Positions 886-12,512 of a DNA stretch of 64,000 nt are shown piece by piece. Numbering within the stretch: position 1 is the stretch's first letter; every line of letters begins with the position of its first letter. The translations under genes were made by a program, and so were the position numbers. Source of the stretch: an uncultured Prevotellaceae bacterium (GTDB lineage: Bacteria > Bacteroidota > Bacteroidia > Bacteroidales > Bacteroidaceae); NCBI GenBank assembly GCA_902792635.1, contig CADBAG010000018.1:3379-67378 (forward strand), in the 5' to 3' direction. A model generated the notes under the pieces. The model made no database searches, was not told where the DNA came from, and was given only the letters and a program-made list of their open reading frames with translations.

Positions 886-2034
886 ATGACTAACATTTTG
901 CGTCTAATGGAAAACCAAAACAATATAGCTTCTGAAAGCACAACTCAGAAAAACGACAAGGTTAACAGTTCAAATAGTCATAAGATAAATGTTGACCTTG
1001 TCGCCCTCTTCCTCCTCATTACCCACAAGTGGAAATTTATTGCCATCACATTACTTGTCTGGGCAATATTTGGCATATGGTATGCTTTTCAGCAACCCAA
1101 AGAGTACAGGTCTACGGTCATGCTCGCGCCAGAGACGACAAGCAATAACCTGGCCAGTAAGATATCGTCTATCACATCCATGGTAGGACTCTTTGACGAG
1201 GCCAACCCCACAGGAGACGCCATCTACCCGGAGATCTATCCGGACATGATGTCTTCCAATGACTTTCTCGTCAAGTTGCTTCCTGTCAAGGTGAAGACAC
1301 TGGACAACAAAGTAAACACCAACTTCTACGACTATCAGAAGAACAAGACCAAGAAGACTTTCTTCATGAAAGTGGGAGGAGGAATACAGCACTTTTTCGC
1401 CTCACTCTCTAAGAAAGATGAGGTTCAGCCGCGCGTAGACTCCCTCCATCCTGATCCCCATCATCTGACAAAAATAGAGGATGGTATCGTAAACAGTATG
1501 AGAAAGGACTTCACTTGCCAGGTGGACAAGAAGACGAATGTCATCACCATCAGTGCACAGACGGAAGATCCACTGGTGTCGACCATTATGGCGAATGCCA
1601 TCAAAGATGAACTGCAGAAGTTCATCACCAAATATAAGACGGAGAAGTCGCGCAATGATGTTAAATATATGAGTGAGATCAACCGTAAGGCCAAGCTCGA
1701 CTATTCGAGAGCCAGACAAAAATATGCAGCATATTGTGATGCCAATACGGATGTCACACTCGAATCGGTAAAATCGAAGCAAGAGGATCTGGAGAATGAC
1801 ATGCAGTTGAAATACAATATCTACACGCAGACCATGCAGCAGCTTCAAATGTCAATGGCCACCCTTCAGGACAACACCCCCGCCTTTACGACCATCCAGT
1901 CGGCTTCAGTTCCTTTGAAGCACTGCAACACTCCAAAGATTTTCATCCTCATTACCTTCTTGATCATCGGTTCGCTTATTGACCTTTTGATTATAGCTAT
2001 AAGATACCGTAAGAACATCATACAGATTGCATAG
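886..2034 (+). CDS. wzz: Wzz-type polysaccharide chain-length determinant
   Basis: Two TM segments flank a large coiled-coil periplasmic region, with a Pro-rich motif before the C-terminal TM (ASVPLKHCNTPK). Confidence 0.85.
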   Translation: MTNILRLMENQNNIASESTTQKNDKVNSSNSHKINVDLVALFLLITHKWKFIAITLLVWAIFGIWYAFQQPKEYRSTVMLAPETTSNNLASKISSITSMVGLFDEANPTGDAIYPEIYPDMMSSNDFLVKLLPVKVKTLDNKVNTNFYDYQKNKTKKTFFMKVGGGIQHFFASLSKKDEVQPRVDSLHPDPHHLTKIEDGIVNSMRKDFTCQVDKKTNVITISAQTEDPLVSTIMANAIKDELQKFITKYKTEKSRNDVKYMSEINRKAKLDYSRARQKYAAYCDANTDVTLESVKSKQEDLENDMQLKYNIYTQTMQQLQMSMATLQDNTPAFTTIQSASVPLKHCNTPKIFILITFLIIGSLIDLLIIAIRYRKNIIQIA

Positions 2035-2058
2035 GTTCCCGGATAACACTATGAATAT

Positions 2059-2994
2059 ATGAAGTGGACACAGCTTATCTGCCGATACAAGATCCTCCTC
2101 ATCAGTTCTTTGGCTATTGCAATCGTTGGCAGCACCGTTGTCTCGGTATCCATTCCCAAGTCTTATTGCTCCATCAAAAAGATATCCATCAATGCGAGCG
2201 AAGATAAACTGGAGAAGGCTACCAACAAGCTGAAGCTTCTCTTCCAGAATCCTACTATAGAGCCGAGCAATGTGACCACAGAGCCCAACGTTATCAATGA
2301 GCTTTTAAAGTCGCCCAAACTCTTCCGGCTGATGGGAGAAGCGTATGTCAAGACCTCTGACAACAAAAGGCTCAAGTTGAAAGATTATCTGCTTTTTAGT
2401 CGTGAGCCTTGGTGGAGCCGGTTCTTCAACAGTCAAGATGAAGAAAACCGGCTGGAGCGCTGTATGATGACGGAGGTGGATCTAAAAACGGGAATCATCA
2501 GTATTAAAGGTATGGCTCAGGATCCCTTGGTTGCCTATGAGATTACCGAGATAGCCTCAGCCTCCTTACGGGCTATACTTCAGGCATACACGAAGCATAT
2601 TGCGGTTATCAATACGAACAACATGCGGAAGCAATGCATCAGCAGCAAGAAGAAATATGACCAGGCCATGAAGGCCTATGCCAAATATGTGGACAGCAAC
2701 ACTTCTCCCACTTTAATGGAAGAGCTGAGTATCATTGACAGTCTTCAGAAGAATGTAGACAATGCATTGGAAGAATACAACAAGGCTAACCTGCAGTACC
2801 ATCTGGCTGCAATGAAAGAGCAAAGGCATCAGATCAATTTCATCTCTCTCAATGACGGGAATATTGCCAAGAGCCCGGAGCATCCCAGAACGTTCATCAA
2901 CCTGCTCATCTGGTTGTTTTATGCGTTGTTATTCGACTTCTGGACTATATCCCTCCACAACAAGTTAAGCAGCAGAATTCATGGCAAACAATAG
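2059..2994 (+). CDS. Second, divergent Wzz-like protein
   Basis: Same topology as the upstream gene (N-terminal TM, coiled coil, PEHPR plus C-terminal TM). Shared segments such as VDLKTGIISI vs VDKKTNVITI. Confidence 0.7.
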   Translation: MKWTQLICRYKILLISSLAIAIVGSTVVSVSIPKSYCSIKKISINASEDKLEKATNKLKLLFQNPTIEPSNVTTEPNVINELLKSPKLFRLMGEAYVKTSDNKRLKLKDYLLFSREPWWSRFFNSQDEENRLERCMMTEVDLKTGIISIKGMAQDPLVAYEITEIASASLRAILQAYTKHIAVINTNNMRKQCISSKKKYDQAMKAYAKYVDSNTSPTLMEELSIIDSLQKNVDNALEEYNKANLQYHLAAMKEQRHQINFISLNDGNIAKSPEHPRTFINLLIWLFYALLFDFWTISLHNKLSSRIHGKQ

Positions 2995-4300
2995 AAGCCA
3001 ACTCTTAAAGAAAAACATTCTCTTTTCCTTTGTTATCAAAGGATGGGCTGGCATTGTTCAGATACTGCTGGTGCCGATTACCATCCATTGCCTGGGCAAC
3101 TATATCAATGGCATCTGGATGGTTATCAGTTCTGTTCTTATATGGATCGACTCTCTTGACATCGGACTTGGCAATGGACTGAGAAACAAGCTCTCTGAAC
3201 GTATAGCACTCAGAGACTCACGCGGTGCAAAGGAATATGTTTCCACGACTTTCTTTACACTGATCGGAATCATCATTCCCGCAATAGTTCTCATTCTATT
3301 AGCTTGTACGAATATCGACTTATACAAACTGCTAAACGTAGACCCACGCATCATCCCCAATCTCACGGCGGTGATCTGTCTTTCTGTCGTACTCGTCGGA
3401 AACACTTTCATCTTTAAGTTTTTAGGAAACGTTTACCTCGCCTTACAGTTACCTGCTGTCAATAACGCGTTGGTGACCTTAGGCCAGACGGTAACGTTGC
3501 TGGCAGTTTTCATTCAGCAGGTCTTCCATATCCACTCGCTGACATGGGTAGCAATAGCCTATACCGGAGGTCCTCTGCTCACTTATCTGATAGCATATCC
3601 GGTCACCTTTCATTGGAAATATAAGGAGCTCTCACCTTCGTGGAGATTCTTCAAAAAGAACAAGATAAAAGAACTTTTCTCTCTTGGCATCAAGTTCTTT
3701 GTGCTGCAGATTGCCGGCATTGTGCTCTTTGCATCAACAAATATCTTGATTTCCAGACTTTTCTCTCCCGAGTTGGTCACTCCTTACCAGGTGACCTACC
3801 GCTACTATTCGTTTATCGTTATGCTCTTCACCATCATTGCCATTCCATTCTGGAGTGCTACCACTGATGCCTATGCGAAGCATGATGTCAAGTGGATACG
3901 ATCCTCGGTAAGGAAACTCAACCTCATTGTCCTGTCCATGTTGCTGATCATCATTGTGATGACGCTCGTTTCACCTTTTGTTTACAATATCTGGGTAGGA
4001 TCGGGAGTGAAGACCAACATGATGTTATCCAGCATCATGGGGGCTTATATATTTGTGATTGTCTTCAGCCTTAGCTATTCGTATATTCTCAATGGCATAG
4101 GTGCGCTCAACCTTCAATTGATCGCAACGGTTATAGCGGCGCTTCTCTATTTGCCTTTAGCCTGGCTGCTTGCCCAAAGATTAGGTATCAACGGAATAGC
4201 TTTGGCACTTGTCATCGTGAATATCCCGGGGGCTATTCTCAATCGGATACAGTACAAGAAGATCATCTCGGGCAATGCCTCGGCATTCTGGACCAAATAA
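2981..4300 (+). CDS. wzx: Wzx flippase (MATE/MOP family)
   Basis: About 12 hydrophobic segments, a DIGLGNGLRN motif and polysaccharide-locus context. Confidence 0.85.
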   Translation: MANNRSQLLKKNILFSFVIKGWAGIVQILLVPITIHCLGNYINGIWMVISSVLIWIDSLDIGLGNGLRNKLSERIALRDSRGAKEYVSTTFFTLIGIIIPAIVLILLACTNIDLYKLLNVDPRIIPNLTAVICLSVVLVGNTFIFKFLGNVYLALQLPAVNNALVTLGQTVTLLAVFIQQVFHIHSLTWVAIAYTGGPLLTYLIAYPVTFHWKYKELSPSWRFFKKNKIKELFSLGIKFFVLQIAGIVLFASTNILISRLFSPELVTPYQVTYRYYSFIVMLFTIIAIPFWSATTDAYAKHDVKWIRSSVRKLNLIVLSMLLIIIVMTLVSPFVYNIWVGSGVKTNMMLSSIMGAYIFVIVFSLSYSYILNGIGALNLQLIATVIAALLYLPLAWLLAQRLGINGIALALVIVNIPGAILNRIQYKKIISGNASAFWTK

Positions 4301-4336
4301 TGATCCAGACAAAATGAATAATCGTAAACGCTAACG

Positions 4337-5548
4337 ATGGGTATAACGCTTATCATTATATTAACGGCATTTCTTGTCCTATTCTATTTTTTTCGGATAG
4401 GCGATGCTTTCTCTCCATGGTTCATCACTACAGCTATCTGGCTGGTGATGATACTGCTTCTCAATGCGGGAGATACTGGTTTGTATCCTCTACAGAGCCG
4501 GTTCTATATCTGTACTTTCTTATGGGTACCGATACTCTCTGCCACAGCCATACTCACTTATTACGCTACCCCCGCCTCCAGCAAAGCCAGCAAAGAAGAG
4601 ACACACATCAATCTCGCTTGGCTGAACTTTTTCTTTGCCCTTTCCCTTGTCTTCACGCCGATCTATGTTTTCCGTATCATCAAGACGGTTACAATGTTCG
4701 GTACTGAGGATCTGCTGTCAAACCTCCGAGTATTAGCCGATGCCGGTCAGGAAGACGCCATAGGTACACTCCTGAAATATATCAGTGCCATCAACCAGGC
4801 GTTGTTCATTGTTTGTATCTGGTTCTATAAACAGGTCGGGAAGACGAGAATGACGATCATTACCCTTGCCAACCTGATGTGCGCCTTTGCTATCATGGAG
4901 AAAGGCTCCTTATTCTTCCTCGGGTTAATTGCCATGTTTGTGTTATACGAGAAGAATGTCATCAAACTGAGAACTATCGCCCTCTGTGGCATAGGTATCA
5001 TCATTCTCTTCTACGGCATCAATGTTGCAAGAACGACATCTGACAAACAGCAGGACAGCAATCTCTTCGATTTTATCGCCATGTACATTTTGTCACCTCC
5101 TGTTGCCTTCGAACAAGTACAACAAAAGGTGACTGAACAATTTGGCTCCCGAACCTTTGCCTTCTTTTATGCTTTCGTGACTAAATTGGGAATAGCCAAC
5201 TATACCATTGAGCCTAAGCTCCAGCCCTTTGTGTTCGTACCCGTTTCGACAAACGTCTATACGGTCTACCAACCTTTCTTCCAGGACTTTGGCTATAAAG
5301 GTGTAGCATTCTTTGCATCTGTTTACGGAGTGTTCACCGGATGGGTGTACAGAAAGTTCAAGAATGGCGGGGCTATTTTTAAATGCCTCTATGCTTATAT
5401 TGCAGAGATATTGGTTCTCCAGTTCTTTCAGGAAAACCTGATCCTAAGTTTGTCGACTCTGTTCCAATACTTGTTCGTCATCATCTTAACGCTTCAGGAC
5501 AAGTACAAGCTACTGATCCATCAAACGAGAATCAGTCCATCAAAATAG
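4337..5548 (+). CDS. wzy: Wzy O-antigen/repeat-unit polymerase
   Basis: Polytopic membrane protein with a large loop and TNVYTVYQPFFQDFG motif, directly after wzx. Confidence 0.8.
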   Translation: MGITLIIILTAFLVLFYFFRIGDAFSPWFITTAIWLVMILLLNAGDTGLYPLQSRFYICTFLWVPILSATAILTYYATPASSKASKEETHINLAWLNFFFALSLVFTPIYVFRIIKTVTMFGTEDLLSNLRVLADAGQEDAIGTLLKYISAINQALFIVCIWFYKQVGKTRMTIITLANLMCAFAIMEKGSLFFLGLIAMFVLYEKNVIKLRTIALCGIGIIILFYGINVARTTSDKQQDSNLFDFIAMYILSPPVAFEQVQQKVTEQFGSRTFAFFYAFVTKLGIANYTIEPKLQPFVFVPVSTNVYTVYQPFFQDFGYKGVAFFASVYGVFTGWVYRKFKNGGAIFKCLYAYIAEILVLQFFQENLILSLSTLFQYLFVIILTLQDKYKLLIHQTRISPSK

Positions 5549-5555
5549 TGGTGAT

Positions 5556-6410
5556 ATGAACAAAGACATAGCCCTTGTAATCGTTATTCTCCAGCCGAGC
5601 GCTGAGGAACTCGATCAGATTAAAAGGCTTTCTACAGCATACGCAGGGGTTGTCGTGGACAACAGCTCCAAGCCAATAACCGACGATGACATTGGCTCCC
5701 TTCACTATATGTATAATGGCAACAAAGACGGCATTGCCGGAGCCCAGACTCTTGCGGTCAGCTATCTGTTGGAAAAGAAGATAGCTGACTATGTAGTGTT
5801 CGTTGACCAAGATAGCAGTATCAATCTTGATTACCCAGCATCCATCTGCAGAGAATATCAATCCATTGCCAAGAAATTCCCATTGGCTATCCTTGGACCT
5901 ACAGTATTGCACAAGGATGACGGAGAAGAATATAAATCTGTTGTACATAAAGACAAACTTTTAGACCATGGCTTCATTCCCCGACGGGATGTTATATCCT
6001 CAGGTTCATGCATCAAACTATCCTTGTTTAATGGCACGCTGAAGATCGACAAAGCCTTGTTTATCGACTATGTCGATTTTGATTTGTGCTGGCAAGCTGA
6101 AAGCAAGGGGCTTGTCTGCGGGATAACAAGCAAAATAAAGATTAGACACAAAGTCGGACAGAGAGAATTGTCGTTAGGGAAATATAAGGTCATTATATCC
6201 AACCCCAAAAGGTATTTCTTCCAATACCGGAATTATCTGTGGCTGGCTAAAAGAAGATATGTGCCATTCCAATGGAAAGTCGCCTCTGGCATAAAATTAA
6301 TTCTAAGATTCTTTTATTTTCCTTTATTATTAAAAGATGGTCCTAGAATTTGGATAAACATGGCTAAAGGAATCTTCGCTGGACTCAATTGCAAAATGAA
6401 AATAAGATGA
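5556..6410 (+). CDS. GT2 glycosyltransferase, rhamnosyltransferase-like
   Basis: VVVDNS, GIAGAQ, DQDS, ISSGS and LFIDYVDFD motifs. Confidence 0.8.
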   Translation: MNKDIALVIVILQPSAEELDQIKRLSTAYAGVVVDNSSKPITDDDIGSLHYMYNGNKDGIAGAQTLAVSYLLEKKIADYVVFVDQDSSINLDYPASICREYQSIAKKFPLAILGPTVLHKDDGEEYKSVVHKDKLLDHGFIPRRDVISSGSCIKLSLFNGTLKIDKALFIDYVDFDLCWQAESKGLVCGITSKIKIRHKVGQRELSLGKYKVIISNPKRYFFQYRNYLWLAKRRYVPFQWKVASGIKLILRFFYFPLLLKDGPRIWINMAKGIFAGLNCKMKIR

Positions 6411-7273
6411 AAATCGGAGCATTAATAATCTTTTATAATCCAGATTTGGAAGTTGCAAACAAGGTTATCTGCGATTTATCAATACAGGTTAATAAGATTT
6501 GTATTGTAGATAACTCTAAGCAACAATGCAAGTATCCTTTTAAGTCCGATAAAATAAAATATATATTTATGAATGGCAATAAAGGTATTGCTGCGGCTCA
6601 AAATCAAGGAATTAAATACTTCATACAGGAGGACTACGACTATATTATTTCTTGCGATCAAGATACTCTTATAGGAAGGACAACTATCATTGATTTATTA
6701 CAAACAATGGAAGACTTAACAAAAGCTGGCGTTCCTATAGGCGCAATTGCTCCTATAGGAATAGACCATTATAGCCACAAAAAATTATCGTATAGTATCG
6801 CAAAAATAAGAGAGACCTTTATCGCAGGTCATGAACTCTTAGAAGTTACGCATACCATGAATTCTATGTCACTTATCCCTGTAAGATTATTTAAGGAAGT
6901 AGGAGGTATGGAAGAAGATCTATTCATTGATGCTGTTGATTGTGAATGGTGCTGGAGAGCACATTACCTTACAAAGGTGAGATTTTTTTATGACACCAAC
7001 ATCTTAATGGATCATAGGTTAGGTATAGCAACAAAAAAGTGTTCAAAGGTATACGAAATACATATTACACCTCCTTTTCGCATGTACTTTCAATACCGAA
7101 ATTATCTTTGGTTAATACATAGAAAATATACTCCTCAAAAATGGATCTTATATAATGGGATAAAATATATTGCAAAGATTATTTACTATACATTATTTAG
7201 CTCTGAAAGAATTTCGTATCTCAAACATATAATAAAAGGAATGAAGGACGGAATAAAATCTCAGTCTCGTTAA
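6407..7273 (+). CDS. GT2 glycosyltransferase, rhamnosyltransferase-like (paralogue)
   Basis: IVDNS, GIAAAQN, DQD and LFIDAVDCEWCWR motifs. Start placed at the ATG at 6407, which overlaps the previous stop. Confidence 0.8.
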   Translation: MKIGALIIFYNPDLEVANKVICDLSIQVNKICIVDNSKQQCKYPFKSDKIKYIFMNGNKGIAAAQNQGIKYFIQEDYDYIISCDQDTLIGRTTIIDLLQTMEDLTKAGVPIGAIAPIGIDHYSHKKLSYSIAKIRETFIAGHELLEVTHTMNSMSLIPVRLFKEVGGMEEDLFIDAVDCEWCWRAHYLTKVRFFYDTNILMDHRLGIATKKCSKVYEIHITPPFRMYFQYRNYLWLIHRKYTPQKWILYNGIKYIAKIIYYTLFSSERISYLKHIIKGMKDGIKSQSR

Positions 7274-7287
7274 CAATACATAAATAC

Positions 7288-8082
7288 ATGACAGAATTAA
7301 GACATCTACAATTAGTTATACTTAGCATTGCCAAAGACATTGATGAGCTTTGTATAAAAAATGGCATAGAATACAGCCTCAATGGAGGCTCTGCTATTGG
7401 AGCTATTCGACATCATGGTTTCATTCCCTGGGATGATGATTTGGATATACAGATGACACCACCCAACTATAGAAAGTTCATTCAGGTCTGCCGTGAACAA
7501 CTTAACACAGAGAAGTACTATTTTGAAGAAGGATTAGTAGATTGGCCACTTGATTTTTGCAAGGTAAAACTAAAAGGTACTTATATGGAAGAGGTTGAGG
7601 GGTATGCTGGTAAGCAGAACCAGCTTGGTATCTTTATTGATATATTCAGAGTTGACGGAGGAGCCCCCACTAAAATAGGTAGAGCATGGCAATATATCTG
7701 CGCTCGATATCGAACAGCATTTCTAATGCGGAAGCGTGGATATAAAAGTGCTTCCTTGGTAAAGAAGATTGCTATGGCATTATCTTTCCCACAATATTTA
7801 TATCCAATTGGACAATTCTTTCAGCATGAGAAAGAAAAATATAATGGCGAGGAAACTGGCTATTATGCTTTCCTTTCAGAAAGAACTTCCTATAGACATG
7901 CCTTTTGCAGGAAAGAAGTTTTTGAAGGGACGTTACGCGTACCTTTCGAAGATATTAATTTGCCTGTTCCAATTCTCTATGATGAATATCTCAAAATTGT
8001 TTTCGGCGATTACATGAAACTTCCTCCAAAAGAAGAACAAGTACCAGCACACCATAAAAGAATAGATTTCGGAAAATACTAA
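7288..8082 (+). CDS. licD: LicD-family phosphotransferase (CDP-alcohol donor)
   Basis: GGSAIGAIRHHGFIPWDDDLDI signature and IFIDIF. Confidence 0.9.
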   Translation: MTELRHLQLVILSIAKDIDELCIKNGIEYSLNGGSAIGAIRHHGFIPWDDDLDIQMTPPNYRKFIQVCREQLNTEKYYFEEGLVDWPLDFCKVKLKGTYMEEVEGYAGKQNQLGIFIDIFRVDGGAPTKIGRAWQYICARYRTAFLMRKRGYKSASLVKKIAMALSFPQYLYPIGQFFQHEKEKYNGEETGYYAFLSERTSYRHAFCRKEVFEGTLRVPFEDINLPVPILYDEYLKIVFGDYMKLPPKEEQVPAHHKRIDFGKY

Positions 8083-8086
8083 GAAT

Positions 8087-9907
8087 ATGCAAGCAATCAT
8101 ATTAGCAGCAGGCATGGGCAAACGTCTTGGCGAGTACACCAAAAATAATACCAAATGTATGGTGGAAGTCAATGGCATTAAACTTATAGACCGGGCTATC
8201 ACACAGTTAGCACACTTTCACCTTAGTCGACTTGTAATCGTAATAGGATATAAGGGAAACGAGCTTAAAGAATATATAGGCCATCGGTATGACAAGGTCC
8301 TGAAAATTGAGTATATCGAGAATAAGGTTTACGACAAGACAAACAACATCTACTCGTTGGCCCTTGCTAAGGACGAGTTGTGTAAAGATGACACGATTCT
8401 ATTAGAATCGGATATTATCTTTGAAGACAGTGTACTTCAAAAATTAATAAATGATCCTTATCCGAATCTTGCCCTCGTTGATAAATATCAATCATGGATG
8501 GATGGCACCATGGTCACTATTAACGAGAACAATGAAATAGAGAACTTCATTAATAAGTCTTCCTTCAGATACCAGGACAAAGACTCTTATTATAAAACTG
8601 TTAATCTTTACAAGTTCAGCAAGGAGTTTTCAACCGGAGTATATGTTCCTTTCCTCGAAGCCTACTGCAAAGTAATGGGGAACAATCAGTATTATGAAGA
8701 AGTTTTACGCGTACTGACTGTTATCCATCAGTCAAGTCTTCATGCGCTTCCCCTGCAAGATGACAAATGGTACGAGATAGACGACGTACAAGATCTTGAC
8801 ATTGCATCCACCCTTTTCTCAAGCGATGCAGACAAATTTTATATGTACCACAAGAGATATGGTGGATTCTGGCGCTTCCCTAAGCTCTTAGATTTCTGTT
8901 ATCTTGTCAATCCCTATTTCCCAAATGAAAGGATGATAGAGGAGATGAAGTCAAACTTTGAGATCTTGCTAAGAGAATACCCATCGGGAATGTACGTCAA
9001 CTCTTTGCTTGCTGCTAAATATTTTTCTGTTAGGCAAGAGTTTATAGTTGTGGGTAATGGAGCTGCGGAGCTAATCAAGAATGTTATGGAGGAACATGCC
9101 GGAAAGAAGGTGGGCGTCTTGTTCCCTACGTTTGACGAATATCCGAACAGGCTGCATAAGGATCAAATCGTAGCTTTCGTTTCACAAAAAGATGATTTCT
9201 CATACACGATTGACGACCTTATTAACTTCTTTGGAGACAAAGACATTTCGTTACTGCTACTCATTAATCCCGATAATCCTTCCGGACACTTTATTGAGAA
9301 GAAGGATCTGCTGAAACTCATATCCTGGTGCTTAGAAAGAAACATTCGAATCATCGTTGACGAAAGTTTCGTAGACTTTACGGACAATTATGAGAAGAAC
9401 AGCCTACTTTCAAATGACATTCTATTGAGATTCCGTAACCTTATGGTTATGAAATCTATCAGCAAGTCGTATGGCGTTCCTGGACTTCGTTTAGGGATAC
9501 TTGCCTCAGCTGATACTTCTCTCATAGATCGAGTGAAAAAGGAAGTATCCATCTGGAATATTAACTCATTTGCAGAATACTATATGCAGATATTCGGCAA
9601 GTATGAATCTGATTACAAGAAAGCTTGCAGACTATTTGTTCGAGAAAGAGAATTATTCTATAAAGACTTACAGACTATTTCCTTCTTGCGTGTATTCCCA
9701 TCACAAGCATATTTCTTTCTTTGTGAAATTACAAATAAGTATTCATCGGCAGAGTTAGCAAATGAACTGATTAAGAGAGATATTCTCATCAGCAATTGCT
9801 CTACTAAAAACCACATGGGAGAGACTGGGAAACAACTTATTCGTCTAGCTATCCGTGATAGGGAAGACGATTCCTACCTCATAGATACTCTTCATAGCCT
9901 TGAATAA
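8087..9907 (+). CDS. Fusion of a LicC/PntC-like cytidylyltransferase and a class I/II PLP enzyme (CobD/HisC-like)
   Basis: N-terminal half has ILAAGMGKRL and WYEIDDVQDL. C-terminal half has NPDNPSG, VDESFVDF and SISKSYGVPGLRLG (PLP lysine). Confidence 0.85.
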   Translation: MQAIILAAGMGKRLGEYTKNNTKCMVEVNGIKLIDRAITQLAHFHLSRLVIVIGYKGNELKEYIGHRYDKVLKIEYIENKVYDKTNNIYSLALAKDELCKDDTILLESDIIFEDSVLQKLINDPYPNLALVDKYQSWMDGTMVTINENNEIENFINKSSFRYQDKDSYYKTVNLYKFSKEFSTGVYVPFLEAYCKVMGNNQYYEEVLRVLTVIHQSSLHALPLQDDKWYEIDDVQDLDIASTLFSSDADKFYMYHKRYGGFWRFPKLLDFCYLVNPYFPNERMIEEMKSNFEILLREYPSGMYVNSLLAAKYFSVRQEFIVVGNGAAELIKNVMEEHAGKKVGVLFPTFDEYPNRLHKDQIVAFVSQKDDFSYTIDDLINFFGDKDISLLLLINPDNPSGHFIEKKDLLKLISWCLERNIRIIVDESFVDFTDNYEKNSLLSNDILLRFRNLMVMKSISKSYGVPGLRLGILASADTSLIDRVKKEVSIWNINSFAEYYMQIFGKYESDYKKACRLFVRERELFYKDLQTISFLRVFPSQAYFFLCEITNKYSSAELANELIKRDILISNCSTKNHMGETGKQLIRLAIRDREDDSYLIDTLHSLE

Positions 9908-10751
9908 TTTGAATTCATTTATCAATTACCCTCCTTTTTCCGTTCTTCTTTCTCTTTATAAAAAGGAGAAGCCGGAATATCTGAAGGAGGCTTTAGACAG
10001 CGTCTTCGCACAGACTATAAAGTCGGATGATGTCGTACTTGTCGAAGACGGACGGTTGCCGGAAGACTTGGAGACTGTGGTCTGCAATTATGAAAGCCGT
10101 TATCCAGCGCTTCACGTGGTCCGATTTGAGCAGAACCGGGGCTTGGGAGTAGCGCTTAATGAGGGTATGAAATACTGTCAGCACGACATTATTGCCAGGG
10201 CCGACACCGACGACATCAATCACCCTGACCGCTTCGAAAGAGAAATAGCTGTCTTCGCTGAGCATCCGGAATATGATCTTGTATCTGCATGGATCGACGA
10301 ATTCATTGATACTCCCGATCATATACACTCTCAACGAAGACTACCCGAGAAGTCTGAGGACATTTATCAGTATGGCAAGCATCGTTGCCCGGTCAATCAT
10401 CCCGTAGCTATGTATCGACGGAGCGCCGTTGAGCGCGTAGGCGGCTATCAAACTGATCTCTTCCCCGAAGATTACTATCTTTGGATGAAGATGCTGAGAG
10501 CGGGAAGCCTGTTCTATAACATCCAGGACAGTCTGCTCGCCTTTAGATACAATCCTCAGACCATTAGGAAAAGAGGCGGCTGGAAATATGCGGTGGATGA
10601 AGCGAGAACGCAATGGAGAGCCTATCGGCAGTTGCATTATCTTTCCTTTACCGACTTCTGCTTCAATGTCTCCATCCGGTTTACAACCCGAATCATCCCT
10701 AACAAGCTCCGACAGCTCATCTACGCTACTATGCGAAAAGTTGCAAAATAA
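9900..10751 (+). CDS. GT2 glycosyltransferase (AmsE/WbbD-like)
   Basis: FSVLLSLYKKE, VEDG, NRGLGVALN, ARADTDD and EDYYLW motifs. TTG start is uncertain. Confidence 0.85.
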   Translation: MNNLNSFINYPPFSVLLSLYKKEKPEYLKEALDSVFAQTIKSDDVVLVEDGRLPEDLETVVCNYESRYPALHVVRFEQNRGLGVALNEGMKYCQHDIIARADTDDINHPDRFEREIAVFAEHPEYDLVSAWIDEFIDTPDHIHSQRRLPEKSEDIYQYGKHRCPVNHPVAMYRRSAVERVGGYQTDLFPEDYYLWMKMLRAGSLFYNIQDSLLAFRYNPQTIRKRGGWKYAVDEARTQWRAYRQLHYLSFTDFCFNVSIRFTTRIIPNKLRQLIYATMRKVAK

Positions 10752-10827
10752 GAACAAAAAAGATTTCTTTTTAATACAATATATCGATAGTCTCAGCGTT
10801 TAATAATCAATAAAGAATGACTATTAA

Positions 10828-11940
10828 ATGCAAGGCTATCTACTATATTTCGGAGCAGTGTTGATAAGCATGGGATGCGGATTTGCCGTCATCCCCGCAA
10901 TCACTAAGTTCTGCCTCAAATATAACTTTTACGACCAGCCCAACGGCCGAAAGATTCACCACGAGCCCATCCCGCGGCTTGGCGGCATCTCTTTTGTGCC
11001 CGGCATGCTTCTGACCTCTGTCATCGTGCTTTTTCTTATGAGCACGGGTCATAACAGAGAAGTGCAGGTGAGTCTTTGGAGCCTCTACTTCTGCGTAAGC
11101 CTGCTCATTATTTATTTTACGGGCATCGTTGACGATCTCGTGGGCCTCAACGCCACCGTAAAATTTATGATTGAGATTGCAGCCACCTGTATCTTACCCG
11201 CTGCCAATCTCTATATCAACAACCTCTATGGGCTGTTCGGTATCTACACCATTCCTTTCTGGGTTGGTGCTCCTCTGACAATCCTCGTTTTAGTTTTTAC
11301 CTGCAATGCCATCAACCTCATCGATGGCATCGATGGATTGTCTGCATCCCTTACGATTATCGCTCTGATAGGATTCTTCATATGTTTCTATTCAGAGAAT
11401 CTAACCTACTATTGCGTCTTGATTGCTGCTTTAGTGGGCGTGCTCATACCTTACCTTTATTATAATGTGTTCGGAAGCATAGAGAAACACAAGAAGATTT
11501 TCATGGGCGACTCAGGCAGTCTGAGCCTTGGTTACATACTTGGGTTTCTTGCTGTGAAACTGTGCATGGACACGCCACGCGTAGCCTACGAACCAAGCAG
11601 GATCGTATGGGCGTGGTCGTTGCTTGCCGTGCCGTGCTTCGACGTGGTGCGCGTCTTCTTCTTCCGTATCATCCACGGGCGCTCACCCTTTCAGCCTGAC
11701 AAGAATCATATCCACCATAAACTTATGGCCTGCGGGCTTAGTCAGCACCAGGCACTGGTTACAATCGTAGCTTTCCAGTTCTTGATCATTGCAGCCAATT
11801 TTGCTTTGGCAGACATCATATCTTCCACCGCAATACTCTGCATTGACGTAGCCATGTATTTCATCTTTAATCTCGTTACTAACCTGGTATCCAACCAGAA
11901 AAGCGCATTGGTAAGCGAGGCTCAGCACATTACAAAATGA
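10828..11940 (+). CDS. MraY/WecA-family undecaprenyl-phosphate sugar-1-P transferase
   Basis: GIVDD, NAINLIDGIDGL, FMGDSGS and PDKNHIHH motifs. Confidence 0.9.
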   Translation: MQGYLLYFGAVLISMGCGFAVIPAITKFCLKYNFYDQPNGRKIHHEPIPRLGGISFVPGMLLTSVIVLFLMSTGHNREVQVSLWSLYFCVSLLIIYFTGIVDDLVGLNATVKFMIEIAATCILPAANLYINNLYGLFGIYTIPFWVGAPLTILVLVFTCNAINLIDGIDGLSASLTIIALIGFFICFYSENLTYYCVLIAALVGVLIPYLYYNVFGSIEKHKKIFMGDSGSLSLGYILGFLAVKLCMDTPRVAYEPSRIVWAWSLLAVPCFDVVRVFFFRIIHGRSPFQPDKNHIHHKLMACGLSQHQALVTIVAFQFLIIAANFALADIISSTAILCIDVAMYFIFNLVTNLVSNQKSALVSEAQHITK

Positions 11941-12512
11941 AAAGAGTCATCGACTTCATATTGGCTATCATCTGTCTGATACTTTTCTCTCCGCTCATGG
12001 CTTTCTGCGCCATTGCCATCAAGCGCGAGGACGGTCTGCCCGTCATCTATAGCCAGGAGCGCATCGGACGTCATGGCAAGCCTTTCAGGATTTACAAGTT
12101 CCGCACCATGAAAAAGGATGCGGAAGATGGCGGCATACCCAAACTTGTCGAGACGCCCAATGACCCCCGACTGACGCATATTGGAGCCAAACTGCGCAAG
12201 CACCACCTCGATGAGCTTCCCCAACTGTGGAATGTCGTCAAAGGTGATATGGCGTTCATTGGTCCACGCCCTGAGCGCCAATATTATATCGACAAGATCA
12301 TGCAGCATGATCCGCGATATGAGCAGCTCTATGCGCTCCGCCCGGGCGTTACAAGCTATGCCACATTATATAATGGGTATGCCGACACGATGGAGAAAAT
12401 GCTGCGACGCCTTGAACTTGACCTTTACTACCTTCAGCATCATTCGCTTTGGATGGATGCTTCTATCCTCTTTAAAACCTTTCTCAGCATTGTTTCTGGG
12501 AAAGTCTTCTGA
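11937..12512 (+). CDS. Small initiating phosphoglycosyltransferase (Bac_transf, WcaJ/PglC-like)
   Basis: KRVIDF, KFRTM, LDELPQLWNVVKGDM, GPRP and PGVT motifs. Confidence 0.9.
   Translation: MKRVIDFILAIICLILFSPLMAFCAIAIKREDGLPVIYSQERIGRHGKPFRIYKFRTMKKDAEDGGIPKLVETPNDPRLTHIGAKLRKHHLDELPQLWNVVKGDMAFIGPRPERQYYIDKIMQHDPRYEQLYALRPGVTSYATLYNGYADTMEKMLRRLELDLYYLQHHSLWMDASILFKTFLSIVSGKVF

Follow-up and report, generated by a model that had tools for sequence, protein, structure and literature searches.

A LicD phosphotransferase and a cytidylyltransferase-PLP fusion protein as a probable kinase-free route to glycan phosphoethanolamine in an uncultured Prevotellaceae bacterium

Introduction

Phosphoethanolamine and phosphocholine on bacterial surface glycans affect charge, immune recognition, phage adsorption and resistance to cationic peptides; to our knowledge, the bacterial routes described so far either import choline, as the Lic1 system does, or take the head group from a membrane phospholipid. 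Here we describe two neighbouring genes in a 64,000-nucleotide stretch of DNA (the window) from an uncultured Prevotellaceae bacterium: a licD gene and, directly downstream, a gene encoding a single protein (the fusion) in which a cytidylyltransferase domain is joined to a pyridoxal 5′-phosphate (PLP)-dependent domain. Together these probably make phosphoethanolamine from phosphoserine and attach it to a glycan. The chemistry is an extension of kinds already known from Lic1, PntC, FrbH and SMUL_1544, which we set out here for comparison.

The same order of domains, an N-terminal LicC-like nucleotidyltransferase followed by a C-terminal PLP-dependent decarboxylase (which we take to be CobD-like), is found in FrbH of the FR-900098 pathway of Streptomyces rubellomurinus, a protein that we compared by its description. 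FrbH cytidylylates L-2-amino-4-phosphonobutyrate (Rice et al.; PMC6697681) and, according to a review, activates this compound with cytidine triphosphate (CTP) and decarboxylates it to CMP-3-aminopropylphosphonate (CMP, cytidine monophosphate). In our own reading 2-amino-4-phosphonobutyrate is the C-P isostere of phosphoserine, with CH2 in place of the ester oxygen. FrbH and the fusion are thus alike in that an amino acid with a terminal phosphorus acid would become a CMP-linked amine, and in a conserved lysine (K38 in FrbH, K23 in the fusion). They differ in that the FrbH substrate is a phosphonate derived from phosphoenolpyruvate (PEP) mutase, within an antibiotic pathway that removes the CMP later, whereas the window has no PEP mutase, the fusion lies in a Wzx/Wzy glycan locus, and LicD is the predicted consumer of its cytidine diphosphate (CDP)-linked product.

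For the PLP domain, the nearest solved kin in both sequence and fold are SMUL_1544 (SmCobD, 6OUX), the L-serine-O-phosphate decarboxylase of norcobamide synthesis, and Salmonella CobD (1LC5-1LC8), which make ethanolamine phosphate or aminopropanol phosphate and which share with the fusion the PLP lysine, an aspartate, an asparagine, an arginine and a DE[AS]F motif. Both are stand-alone enzymes encoded beside CbiB within cobamide clusters; the fusion, in contrast, carries a cytidylyltransferase, and at the position of Arg323 it has serine, where most of its family has lysine. The Lic1 system (LicA kinase, LicB permease, LicC and LicD) resembles the gene pair in that a LicC-type enzyme yields a CDP-amino-alcohol from which LicD then makes its transfer, but Lic1 imports and phosphorylates the head group, whereas the fusion would make it de novo by means of a PLP enzyme.

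Another two-domain protein, PntC-AEPT of Treponema denticola (Tde1415; 6PD1/6PD2), combines a LicC-like domain with a fold-type-I PLP enzyme, has LicD-like genes nearby, and is the top Foldseek match of the whole fusion model; it differs in that its PLP enzyme is a class V aminoethylphosphonate (AEP) transaminase, in the packing of its domains (TM 0.36-0.39) and in its dependence on PEP mutase. In Campylobacter jejuni two PLP enzymes studied in the Raushel and Holden laboratories, Cj1436 and Cj1437, serve the capsule, the former converting phosphoserine to ethanolamine phosphate and the latter dihydroxyacetone phosphate (DHAP) to serinol phosphate; their products are dephosphorylated and amide-joined to glucuronate, and neither CTP activation nor a LicD is involved. 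Our PDB searches showed no close match of the fusion to Cj1436 or Cj1437. A full-text literature search of incomplete coverage found no paper that characterises a cytidylyltransferase-PLP fusion, and neither ‘decarboxylase’ nor ‘aminotransferase’ occurs in the text of a 2023 survey of bacterial phosphocholine pathways.

The licD gene and the fusion gene

The two genes, with the fusion divided into its domains, are placed in the window as follows:

7288-8082, + strand: LicD-family phosphotransferase (P0002), 264 amino acids (Pfam LicD 1.6e-36, full model)
8087-8860, + strand: N-terminal LicC/PntC-type cytidylyltransferase domain of the fusion, residues 1 to about 255 (PDB matches, conserved residues)
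8864-9907, + strand: C-terminal CobD/SMUL_1544-like PLP decarboxylase domain of the fusion, residues about 260-606 (PDB, Foldseek, NCBIfam)

The licD stop codon (TAA, 8080-8082) is followed by four bases (gaat) and then by the fusion ATG at 8087; the fusion open reading frame (ORF; 8087-9907, + strand) encodes 606 amino acids, and its 3′ end overlaps the next gene, which encodes a GT2 glycosyltransferase, by 8 bp. An earlier note on this DNA had placed a single 606-amino-acid ORF 4 bp after licD, and the ORF coordinates and the stop and start letters confirm this.

The LicD protein matches PF04991 over model positions 1-227 with 127 bits (Pfam; cut-off 22.6). Its core motif, GGSAIGAIRHHGFIPWDDDLD, aligns to the catalytic core of FKRP (6kaj), and the acidic DxD-type motif is present (PWDDDLD, against IPWDYDVD in the FKRP core); the protein is predicted to take a phospho-alcohol from its CDP donor and pass it to the repeat unit. 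The same genome encodes a second LicD of 279 amino acids (genome G000, contig C10; L011:9104-13768), beside an IspD-like cytidylyltransferase, an SDR epimerase/dehydratase-type enzyme and glycosyltransferases, and this set is probably a CDP-ribitol-type decoration that is separate from the licD/fusion pair. Each of the genome's two LicD proteins therefore adjoins a donor synthase of its own, which supports the functional pairing of the licD at 7288-8082 with the fusion. The set around the second LicD is flanked by DUF6080 genes.

In the fusion, Pfam finds NTP_transf_3 (MobA-like)/NTP_transferase at residues 3-123 and Aminotran_1_2 at residues 310-600 (E 2.8e-26). An AlphaFold2 model, built from 41 relatives, is confident for both domains (predicted local distance difference test, pLDDT, 90.8; predicted TM score, pTM, 0.85), with a complete nucleotidyltransferase fold to about residue 255 and the PLP fold from about residue 260.

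The best PDB relatives of the N-terminal domain are 6pd1, the PntC of Treponema PntC-AEPT (4.3e-12), and pneumococcal LicC, 1jyk (6.7e-11), both of which outscore the sugar-phosphate nucleotidyltransferases. We counted residue conservation over 101 diverse representatives of the fusion family: G9, G11, R13, K23, E107 and D109 are kept in 96-99 of them, with the GxGxR loop and its lysine (G9/G11/R13/K23) at 96-97 and E107 of the LLESD motif at 98. LLESD itself is identical in the window's fusion and in Tde-PntC. K23 is the counterpart of Tde K25 and FrbH K38, and mutating Tde Lys25 or FrbH Lys38 abolishes activity (PMC6697681). In Tde-PntC the LLESD glutamate (Glu104) hydrogen-bonds the primary amine of AEP, a position at which LicC has the smaller aspartate (PMC6697681). 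By its sequence the N-terminal domain is thus of LicC/PntC type, and it is predicted to use CTP; the PDB ranking, the GxGxR loop, K23 and LLESD all bear out the LicC/PntC type, which the earlier note had already named.

Among PDB structures the C-terminal domain matches SMUL_1544 best (6oux; 2.4e-41, 145 bits), followed by a Clostridium entry (3ftb; 3.2e-31, 112 bits), Salmonella CobD (1lc5; 7.3e-28, 101 bits) and a true plant HisC (8bj1; 2.7e-25, 93 bits). A Foldseek search with the domain agrees, giving TMt 0.78-0.84 to 6oux and 1lc5-8 (0.84 for 1lc5); the Foldseek title of 6oux is ‘SMUL_1544, a decarboxylase from Sulfurospirillum multivorans’. Keller and co-workers reportedly found that SMUL_1544 makes ethanolamine phosphate from L-serine phosphate. 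Over residues 264-605 there is 30% identity to a Sulfurospirillum plasmid homologue whose NCBI annotation reads ‘norcobamide biosynthesis serine-O-phosphate decarboxylase’. Of the NCBIfam models, TIGR01140 (CobD) fits the domain best, at 1.3e-52; TIGR01141 (HisC) follows at 1.9e-39, with 135.6 bits against a cut-off of 276.55, and the HisC-like gene that the genome itself encodes has an identity of just 24%.

The active-site residues follow the same pattern. The Schiff-base lysine, K460 (9464-9466), stands in a SISK motif and aligns to CobD Lys216, so that SISK is indeed the PLP-lysine motif it had been taken for; D425, N397 and R468 align with CobD D185, N157 and R224, and R586 with CobD R337, and these five residues are kept in 86-100 of the 101 representatives. 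After the PLP-binding aspartate the fusion reads DESF; CobD, SMUL_1544 and 3ftb have DE[AS]F there, and true HisC has DEAY. Phenylalanine (F428 of DESF) takes the position of the HisC tyrosine in 92 of 101 family members. A CYLxNPY motif is found, among the compared structures, in the fusion and 6oux only. The earlier description of this domain as CobD/HisC-like can therefore be narrowed: it is CobD-like, with SMUL_1544 nearest, while its likeness to HisC is the lesser one, since true HisC scores lower and the DEAY tyrosine is replaced. The PLP domain belongs to a distinct subfamily, equivalog to neither CobD nor HisC.

Substrate supply and proposed pathway

Genome-wide searches were made in Prevotella sp. 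UBA2725, a metagenome-assembled genome of 3.16 Mb that is 99.8% complete and carries an identical locus. Choline kinase gave no PF01633 match, either in the locus or genome-wide. Profile scans of the locus found no LicB-like permease, a protein for which no genome-wide search was made. PEP mutase was not found genome-wide; the sole match to PF13714 is weak and is PanB, which sits between PanC and CoaBC and is without the EDK motif. As far as the locus is concerned, Pfam and NCBIfam scans thus confirm that choline kinase, choline transporter and PEP mutase are missing, as had been noted before. There is also no PF03186 match to CbiB genome-wide and hence no cobamide loop assembly that could use a CobD-like product. 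SerC, on the other hand, is present at full length (442 bits), so phosphoserine is made in the organism; coming from serine biosynthesis, it needs neither a kinase nor import.

We think it rather likely that the pair converts phosphoserine to CDP-ethanolamine, from which LicD transfers phosphoethanolamine to the glycan. The PLP domain would turn the O-phospho-L-serine skeleton into that of ethanolamine phosphate by decarboxylation, and the N-terminal domain would use CTP to join CMP to the phosphate, so that the fusion would act as one bifunctional donor synthase, with phosphoserine and CTP giving CDP-ethanolamine, CO2 and pyrophosphate. LicD would then move phosphoethanolamine from CDP-ethanolamine onto a sugar of the undecaprenyl-linked repeat unit at the cytoplasmic face; this unit would be built by the WecA-like and GT2 enzymes of the operon, flipped by Wzx and polymerised by Wzy. 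Substrate, product, acceptor and step order are what we infer here; gene order, domains, catalytic residues, the absent supply genes and the gene pairings are observed. As to the order of the two steps, decarboxylation first, which is the order in the earlier note, and the FrbH-like alternative of CTP first (giving CDP-serine, then CDP-ethanolamine) are about equally likely; it is the FrbH precedent that makes the latter a serious option.

Related loci

We tallied, by profile searches, the context of 80 related loci, mostly from Bacteroidales, whose fusions are 57-100% identical to that of the window. A LicD-family gene lies within 8 kb of the fusion at 62 of the 80, and as a neighbour that recurs across phyla LicD stands up well as the fusion's working partner, the role in which the earlier note had cast it. 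A Pfam Octopine_DH protein is encoded at 36/80 loci, mostly directly 3′ of the fusion and often with overlapping stop and start, and an OCD/mu-crystallin protein at 17/80, mostly in the same slot; one or other reductase is thus found at 53/80 loci (for example L036:9840-10844 and L025:9832-10773; L013-L091). Along its whole length the opine-dehydrogenase partner aligns with octopine dehydrogenase of the scallop (3.7e-36); the matches of the OCD partner are to imine reductases, to alanine dehydrogenase and to SbnB. Fourteen of the 80 loci have a short LicD and a GT-A-like protein with neither reductase, and seven have LicD alone, as in the window. The two-gene form on which the earlier proposal rests is that of the window, but it is a minority arrangement, the minimal form of what is usually a three-gene cassette. 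A 308-amino-acid neighbour at some loci (‘unk308’) was considered as an amine-tailoring enzyme and rejected, having weak GT-A-like matches only. At loci L021, L022 and L063 the fusion and an opine dehydrogenase stand among housekeeping genes (signal peptidase, NadA, MetRS and a protease S49), and LicD is absent from the surrounding 8 kb; at L018 the next gene encodes a 616-amino-acid sulfatase-fold protein.

The nearest relatives of the fusion (86% identity; L013, L014) are paired with a very different, short LicD, which indicates that donor gene and transferase recombine independently. The partners are also found fused to one another or to other domains: an opine dehydrogenase-LicD fusion of 932 amino acids (L075:5113-7911); IspD-LicD fusions upstream in some loci, one of them of 523 amino acids (L058:4358-5929); and a TagF-like (CDP-glycerol-type, Glyphos_transf) domain joined to a CobD-like PLP domain in a protein of 873 amino acids (P0245). 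Full-length fusions of as little as 31% identity exist in the wider sequence library, including triple fusions of 830-854 amino acids with a C-terminal S-adenosylmethionine (SAM) methyltransferase (P0125, P0127, P0220, P0254); a search with one such representative found no methyltransferase-bearing triple fusion among 400 genomes of the phylum. On a plasmid of Gloeothece verrucosa PCC 7822 (L110:5974-9436) an exopolysaccharide locus is annotated with two successive glycosyltransferases, then the fusion, a class I SAM methyltransferase and LicD. Fusion, methyltransferase and LicD together might supply N-methylated or choline-type phospho head groups independently of choline.

That two unrelated C=N reductase families occupy one slot, with an N-methyltransferase as a further alternative, argues for a fusion product with a free primary amine to be tailored. 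Comparison of the loci points to such an amine, putatively modified by the partner enzymes, as the simplest common denominator; in the window, where no tailoring gene is present, the product would be the plain amine. The opine-type partners suggest N-carboxyalkyl aminoethyl-phosphate head groups, and 2-[(R)-1-carboxyethylamino]ethyl phosphate is a known residue of Proteus O-antigens.

More distant homologues stand in other surroundings. On a Bacillus cereus plasmid (NZ_CP053657.2; L107:3443-14277) a full-length fusion (33% identity, 6e-94) neighbours a second DXR, an AAC(3)-family N-acetyltransferase, an acyl carrier protein, an aminoacyl-tRNA-ligase-like protein, an ATP-grasp protein and a 5′-nucleotidase. 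It looks like a phosphonate cluster of the fosmidomycin/FR-900098 type, in which the second DXR would be a resistance copy of the target, with N-acetylation and nucleotide removal to match; the stretch L107:3443-14277 showed no PEP mutase. In Bradyrhizobium, also on a plasmid, a PEP mutase adjoins unfused versions of both domains. On plasmid pERA53 of Erwinia rhapontici (L108:6980-15448) a gene for a small CDP-alcohol phosphatidyltransferase comes directly after the fusion, and genes for two HAD proteins, an SDR protein and an ATP-grasp protein come next. MFS transporters lie on both sides of this cluster, which is putatively of small-molecule or head-group type. Judged by such neighbours, the fusion family spans both glycan decoration and small-molecule pathways; the cluster names of distant representatives are generic only.

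Of 301 species genomes sampled from the same GTDB family, 58 carry the fusion, as do 4 of 16 species of its genus, and in every case it is an accessory gene; elsewhere in the phylum, a sample of 400 genomes yielded just 2 that have it.

Alternative products and roles

Several observations weigh against phosphoserine as the substrate and against glycan decoration as the role. The PLP domain lies under the CobD equivalog cut-off (TIGR01140, 179 against 290.55 bits) and is thus related to CobD without being its equivalog. The position of CobD Arg323, which is arginine in 6oux, 3ftb and HisC, is Ser569 here (9791-9793) and lysine in 85 of the 101 representatives, and also in the Bacillus and Erwinia plasmid homologues; Arg323 and Arg337 are the two arginines that hold the substrate phosphate in CobD, and the change implies that the substrate pocket differs from that of decarboxylases characterised so far. 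Both SMUL_1544 and CobD are partly promiscuous between phosphoserine and phosphothreonine, so that homology is not enough to settle the substrate. Some related loci, moreover, have no LicD nearby and are set among housekeeping genes, and distant homologues belong to phosphonate or small-molecule clusters. Ser569 marks a subclade (loci L012-L035), with no link to the type of partner gene seen; we did not accept it as a sign of inactivity, the whole subclade carrying the usual partners. The change at the Arg323 position may mean that the PLP site takes a phosphodiester (CMP-linked) substrate and not a phosphomonoester.

The choice left by the earlier note between ethanolamine, aminopropanol and serinol phosphate is now clearly in favour of ethanolamine phosphate, with SMUL_1544 as the nearest relative and SerC present; the other two are minor rivals. 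Serinol would result were the PLP domain a HisC-like transaminase, using DHAP (or another keto-phosphate) and glutamate to make serinol phosphate, then CDP-serinol. DHAP-to-serinol-phosphate transaminases do exist, in Cj1437 of C. jejuni and the N-domain of RtxA of Bradyrhizobium, and the matches to HisC (TIGR01141, 8bj1) are good; however, every decarboxylase relative outscores any true HisC, the DEAY tyrosine has given way to phenylalanine as in CobD, SMUL_1544 and 3ftb, and FrbH, the only characterised enzyme with the same domain order, is described as a decarboxylase, so we consider this route unlikely. A true CobD-type decarboxylase of L-threonine-O-3-phosphate, leading through CDP-(R)-1-amino-2-propanol to an aminopropanol-phosphate decoration, would agree with TIGR01140 as best model and with the fold match to 1lc5. 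It is nonetheless distinctly unlikely: phosphothreonine is no general metabolite and requires a dedicated kinase, of which there is none in the locus (a PduX/BluE-type kinase was not searched for genome-wide), while the absence of CbiB leaves no cobamide loop assembly to call for it; SMUL_1544 outscores CobD and has the CYLxNPY motif; and a cassette of two or three genes that moves among many genomes must use a universal precursor.

Two further alternatives depart from amino-alcohol phosphates altogether. Pneumococcal annotations name gtp1 a dehydrogenase, gtp2 a nucleotidyl transferase, gtp3 a phosphotransferase and wchX a glycerol phosphotransferase, and, compared by annotation only, the cassette could correspond to a CDP-2-glycerol system that adds glycerol-2-phosphate, with the fusion as Gtp2 plus Gtp3, LicD as WchX and the opine-dehydrogenase-like partner as Gtp1. 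Gtp3, though, is annotated as a phosphotransferase (Wang and co-workers reportedly identified it as a glycerol-2-phosphotransferase), whereas the PLP lysine and ligands of the fusion, needless for a mere phosphotransferase, are near-invariant in some 100 divergent members; an OCD-family imine reductase (17 loci) or an N-methyltransferase replaces the opine dehydrogenase, which speaks of amine and not glycerol chemistry; and the window has no Gtp1-like reductase. We regard this as very improbable. Least plausible of all, to the point of being nearly negligible, is that the fusion acts like FrbH or PntC on a C-P amino acid and that LicD installs an aminoalkylphosphonate: PntC-AEPT is the closest whole-protein fold match, and distant homologues do stand beside PEP mutase or in an FR-900098-like setting, but a genome that is 99.8% complete offers no PEP mutase, PanB being the lone PF13714 match.

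The route from phosphoserine to glycan phosphoethanolamine can be set in a wider reading of the family, which we put forward only tentatively and think somewhat unlikely to hold as a whole: that the fusions are the primary-metabolism counterpart of FrbH, making CDP-ethanolamine de novo and without a kinase by way of CDP-serine, with the amine tailored by partner enzymes and the head group attached by LicD or TagF-like proteins. The PLP domain would then decarboxylate CDP-serine held on its nucleotide handle, and the lysine or serine in place of the second phosphate-binding arginine would reflect a diester substrate. Opine dehydrogenases and OCD reductases would yield N-carboxyalkyl (opine-type) heads, and methyltransferases N-methyl or choline heads without choline; the window would represent the unadorned form, a phosphoethanolamine-bearing, zwitterion-carrying polysaccharide on a gut Prevotella.

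If the phosphoserine route is right, a two-gene, kinase-free module draws on phosphoserine and could make the decoration independent of diet or host supply. The route that the licD/fusion pair most likely provides would be a common one in gut bacteria. The wider family offers candidate genes for opine-type aminoethyl-phosphate residues, and it may explain choline-independent phosphocholine.

Layout of the locus

The polysaccharide operon is one + strand run from 886 to 12512, after which come the glutamate synthase genes (gltB). Around licD and the fusion it comprises:

886-2034, + strand: Wzz-type chain-length determinant, the first gene of the operon (Pfam Wzz 3.3e-08)
2059-2994, + strand: EpsF-like chain-length determinant C-terminal-type protein (NCBIfam TIGR03017 2.2e-07, far under cut-off)
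2981-4300, + strand: Wzx-type flippase (Pfam MatE / Polysacc_synt)
4337-5548, + strand: Wzy-type repeat-unit polymerase (NCBIfam TIGR04370 5.9e-43, over cut-off)
5556-6410, + strand: glycosyltransferase, rhamnosyltransferase-like (NCBIfam TIGR01556 1.6e-30, under cut-off)
6389-7273, + strand: GT2 glycosyltransferase, rhamnosyltransferase-like, opening the low-GC block (Pfam GT2; TIGR01556 1.5e-47)
9900-10751, + strand: GT2 glycosyltransferase (Pfam GT2 2.1e-25)
10828-11940, + strand: WecA-like initiating phosphoglycosyl transferase (Pfam Glycos_transf_4 5e-32; TIGR02380 1.8e-47)
11937-12512, + strand: Bac_transf small sugar transferase (initiating-type), at the end of the locus (Pfam Bac_transf 2.1e-63)

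The first two genes were considered as a single Wzz split by a nonsense mutation, an idea that we rejected, there being two in-frame stops between them. Between about 6000 and 10000 the G+C content falls to 32-40%, where the remainder of the locus has 43-50% and the window as a whole about 49%, and this block holds the GT2 gene at 6389-7273, licD and the fusion gene; the low-GC segment fits block-wise acquisition. Taken with the patchy spread of the fusion within its family and genus, it is also consistent with a serotype determinant that moves among gut and rumen Bacteroidales. A promoter and terminator scan of the window, of a kind that does not cover Bacteroidota promoters, gave counts not above those of shuffled sequences. 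At the head of the locus (62-553 of the window) lies a gene whose product matches DUF3990 (Pfam 4.4e-48) and, faintly, ART-PolyVal.

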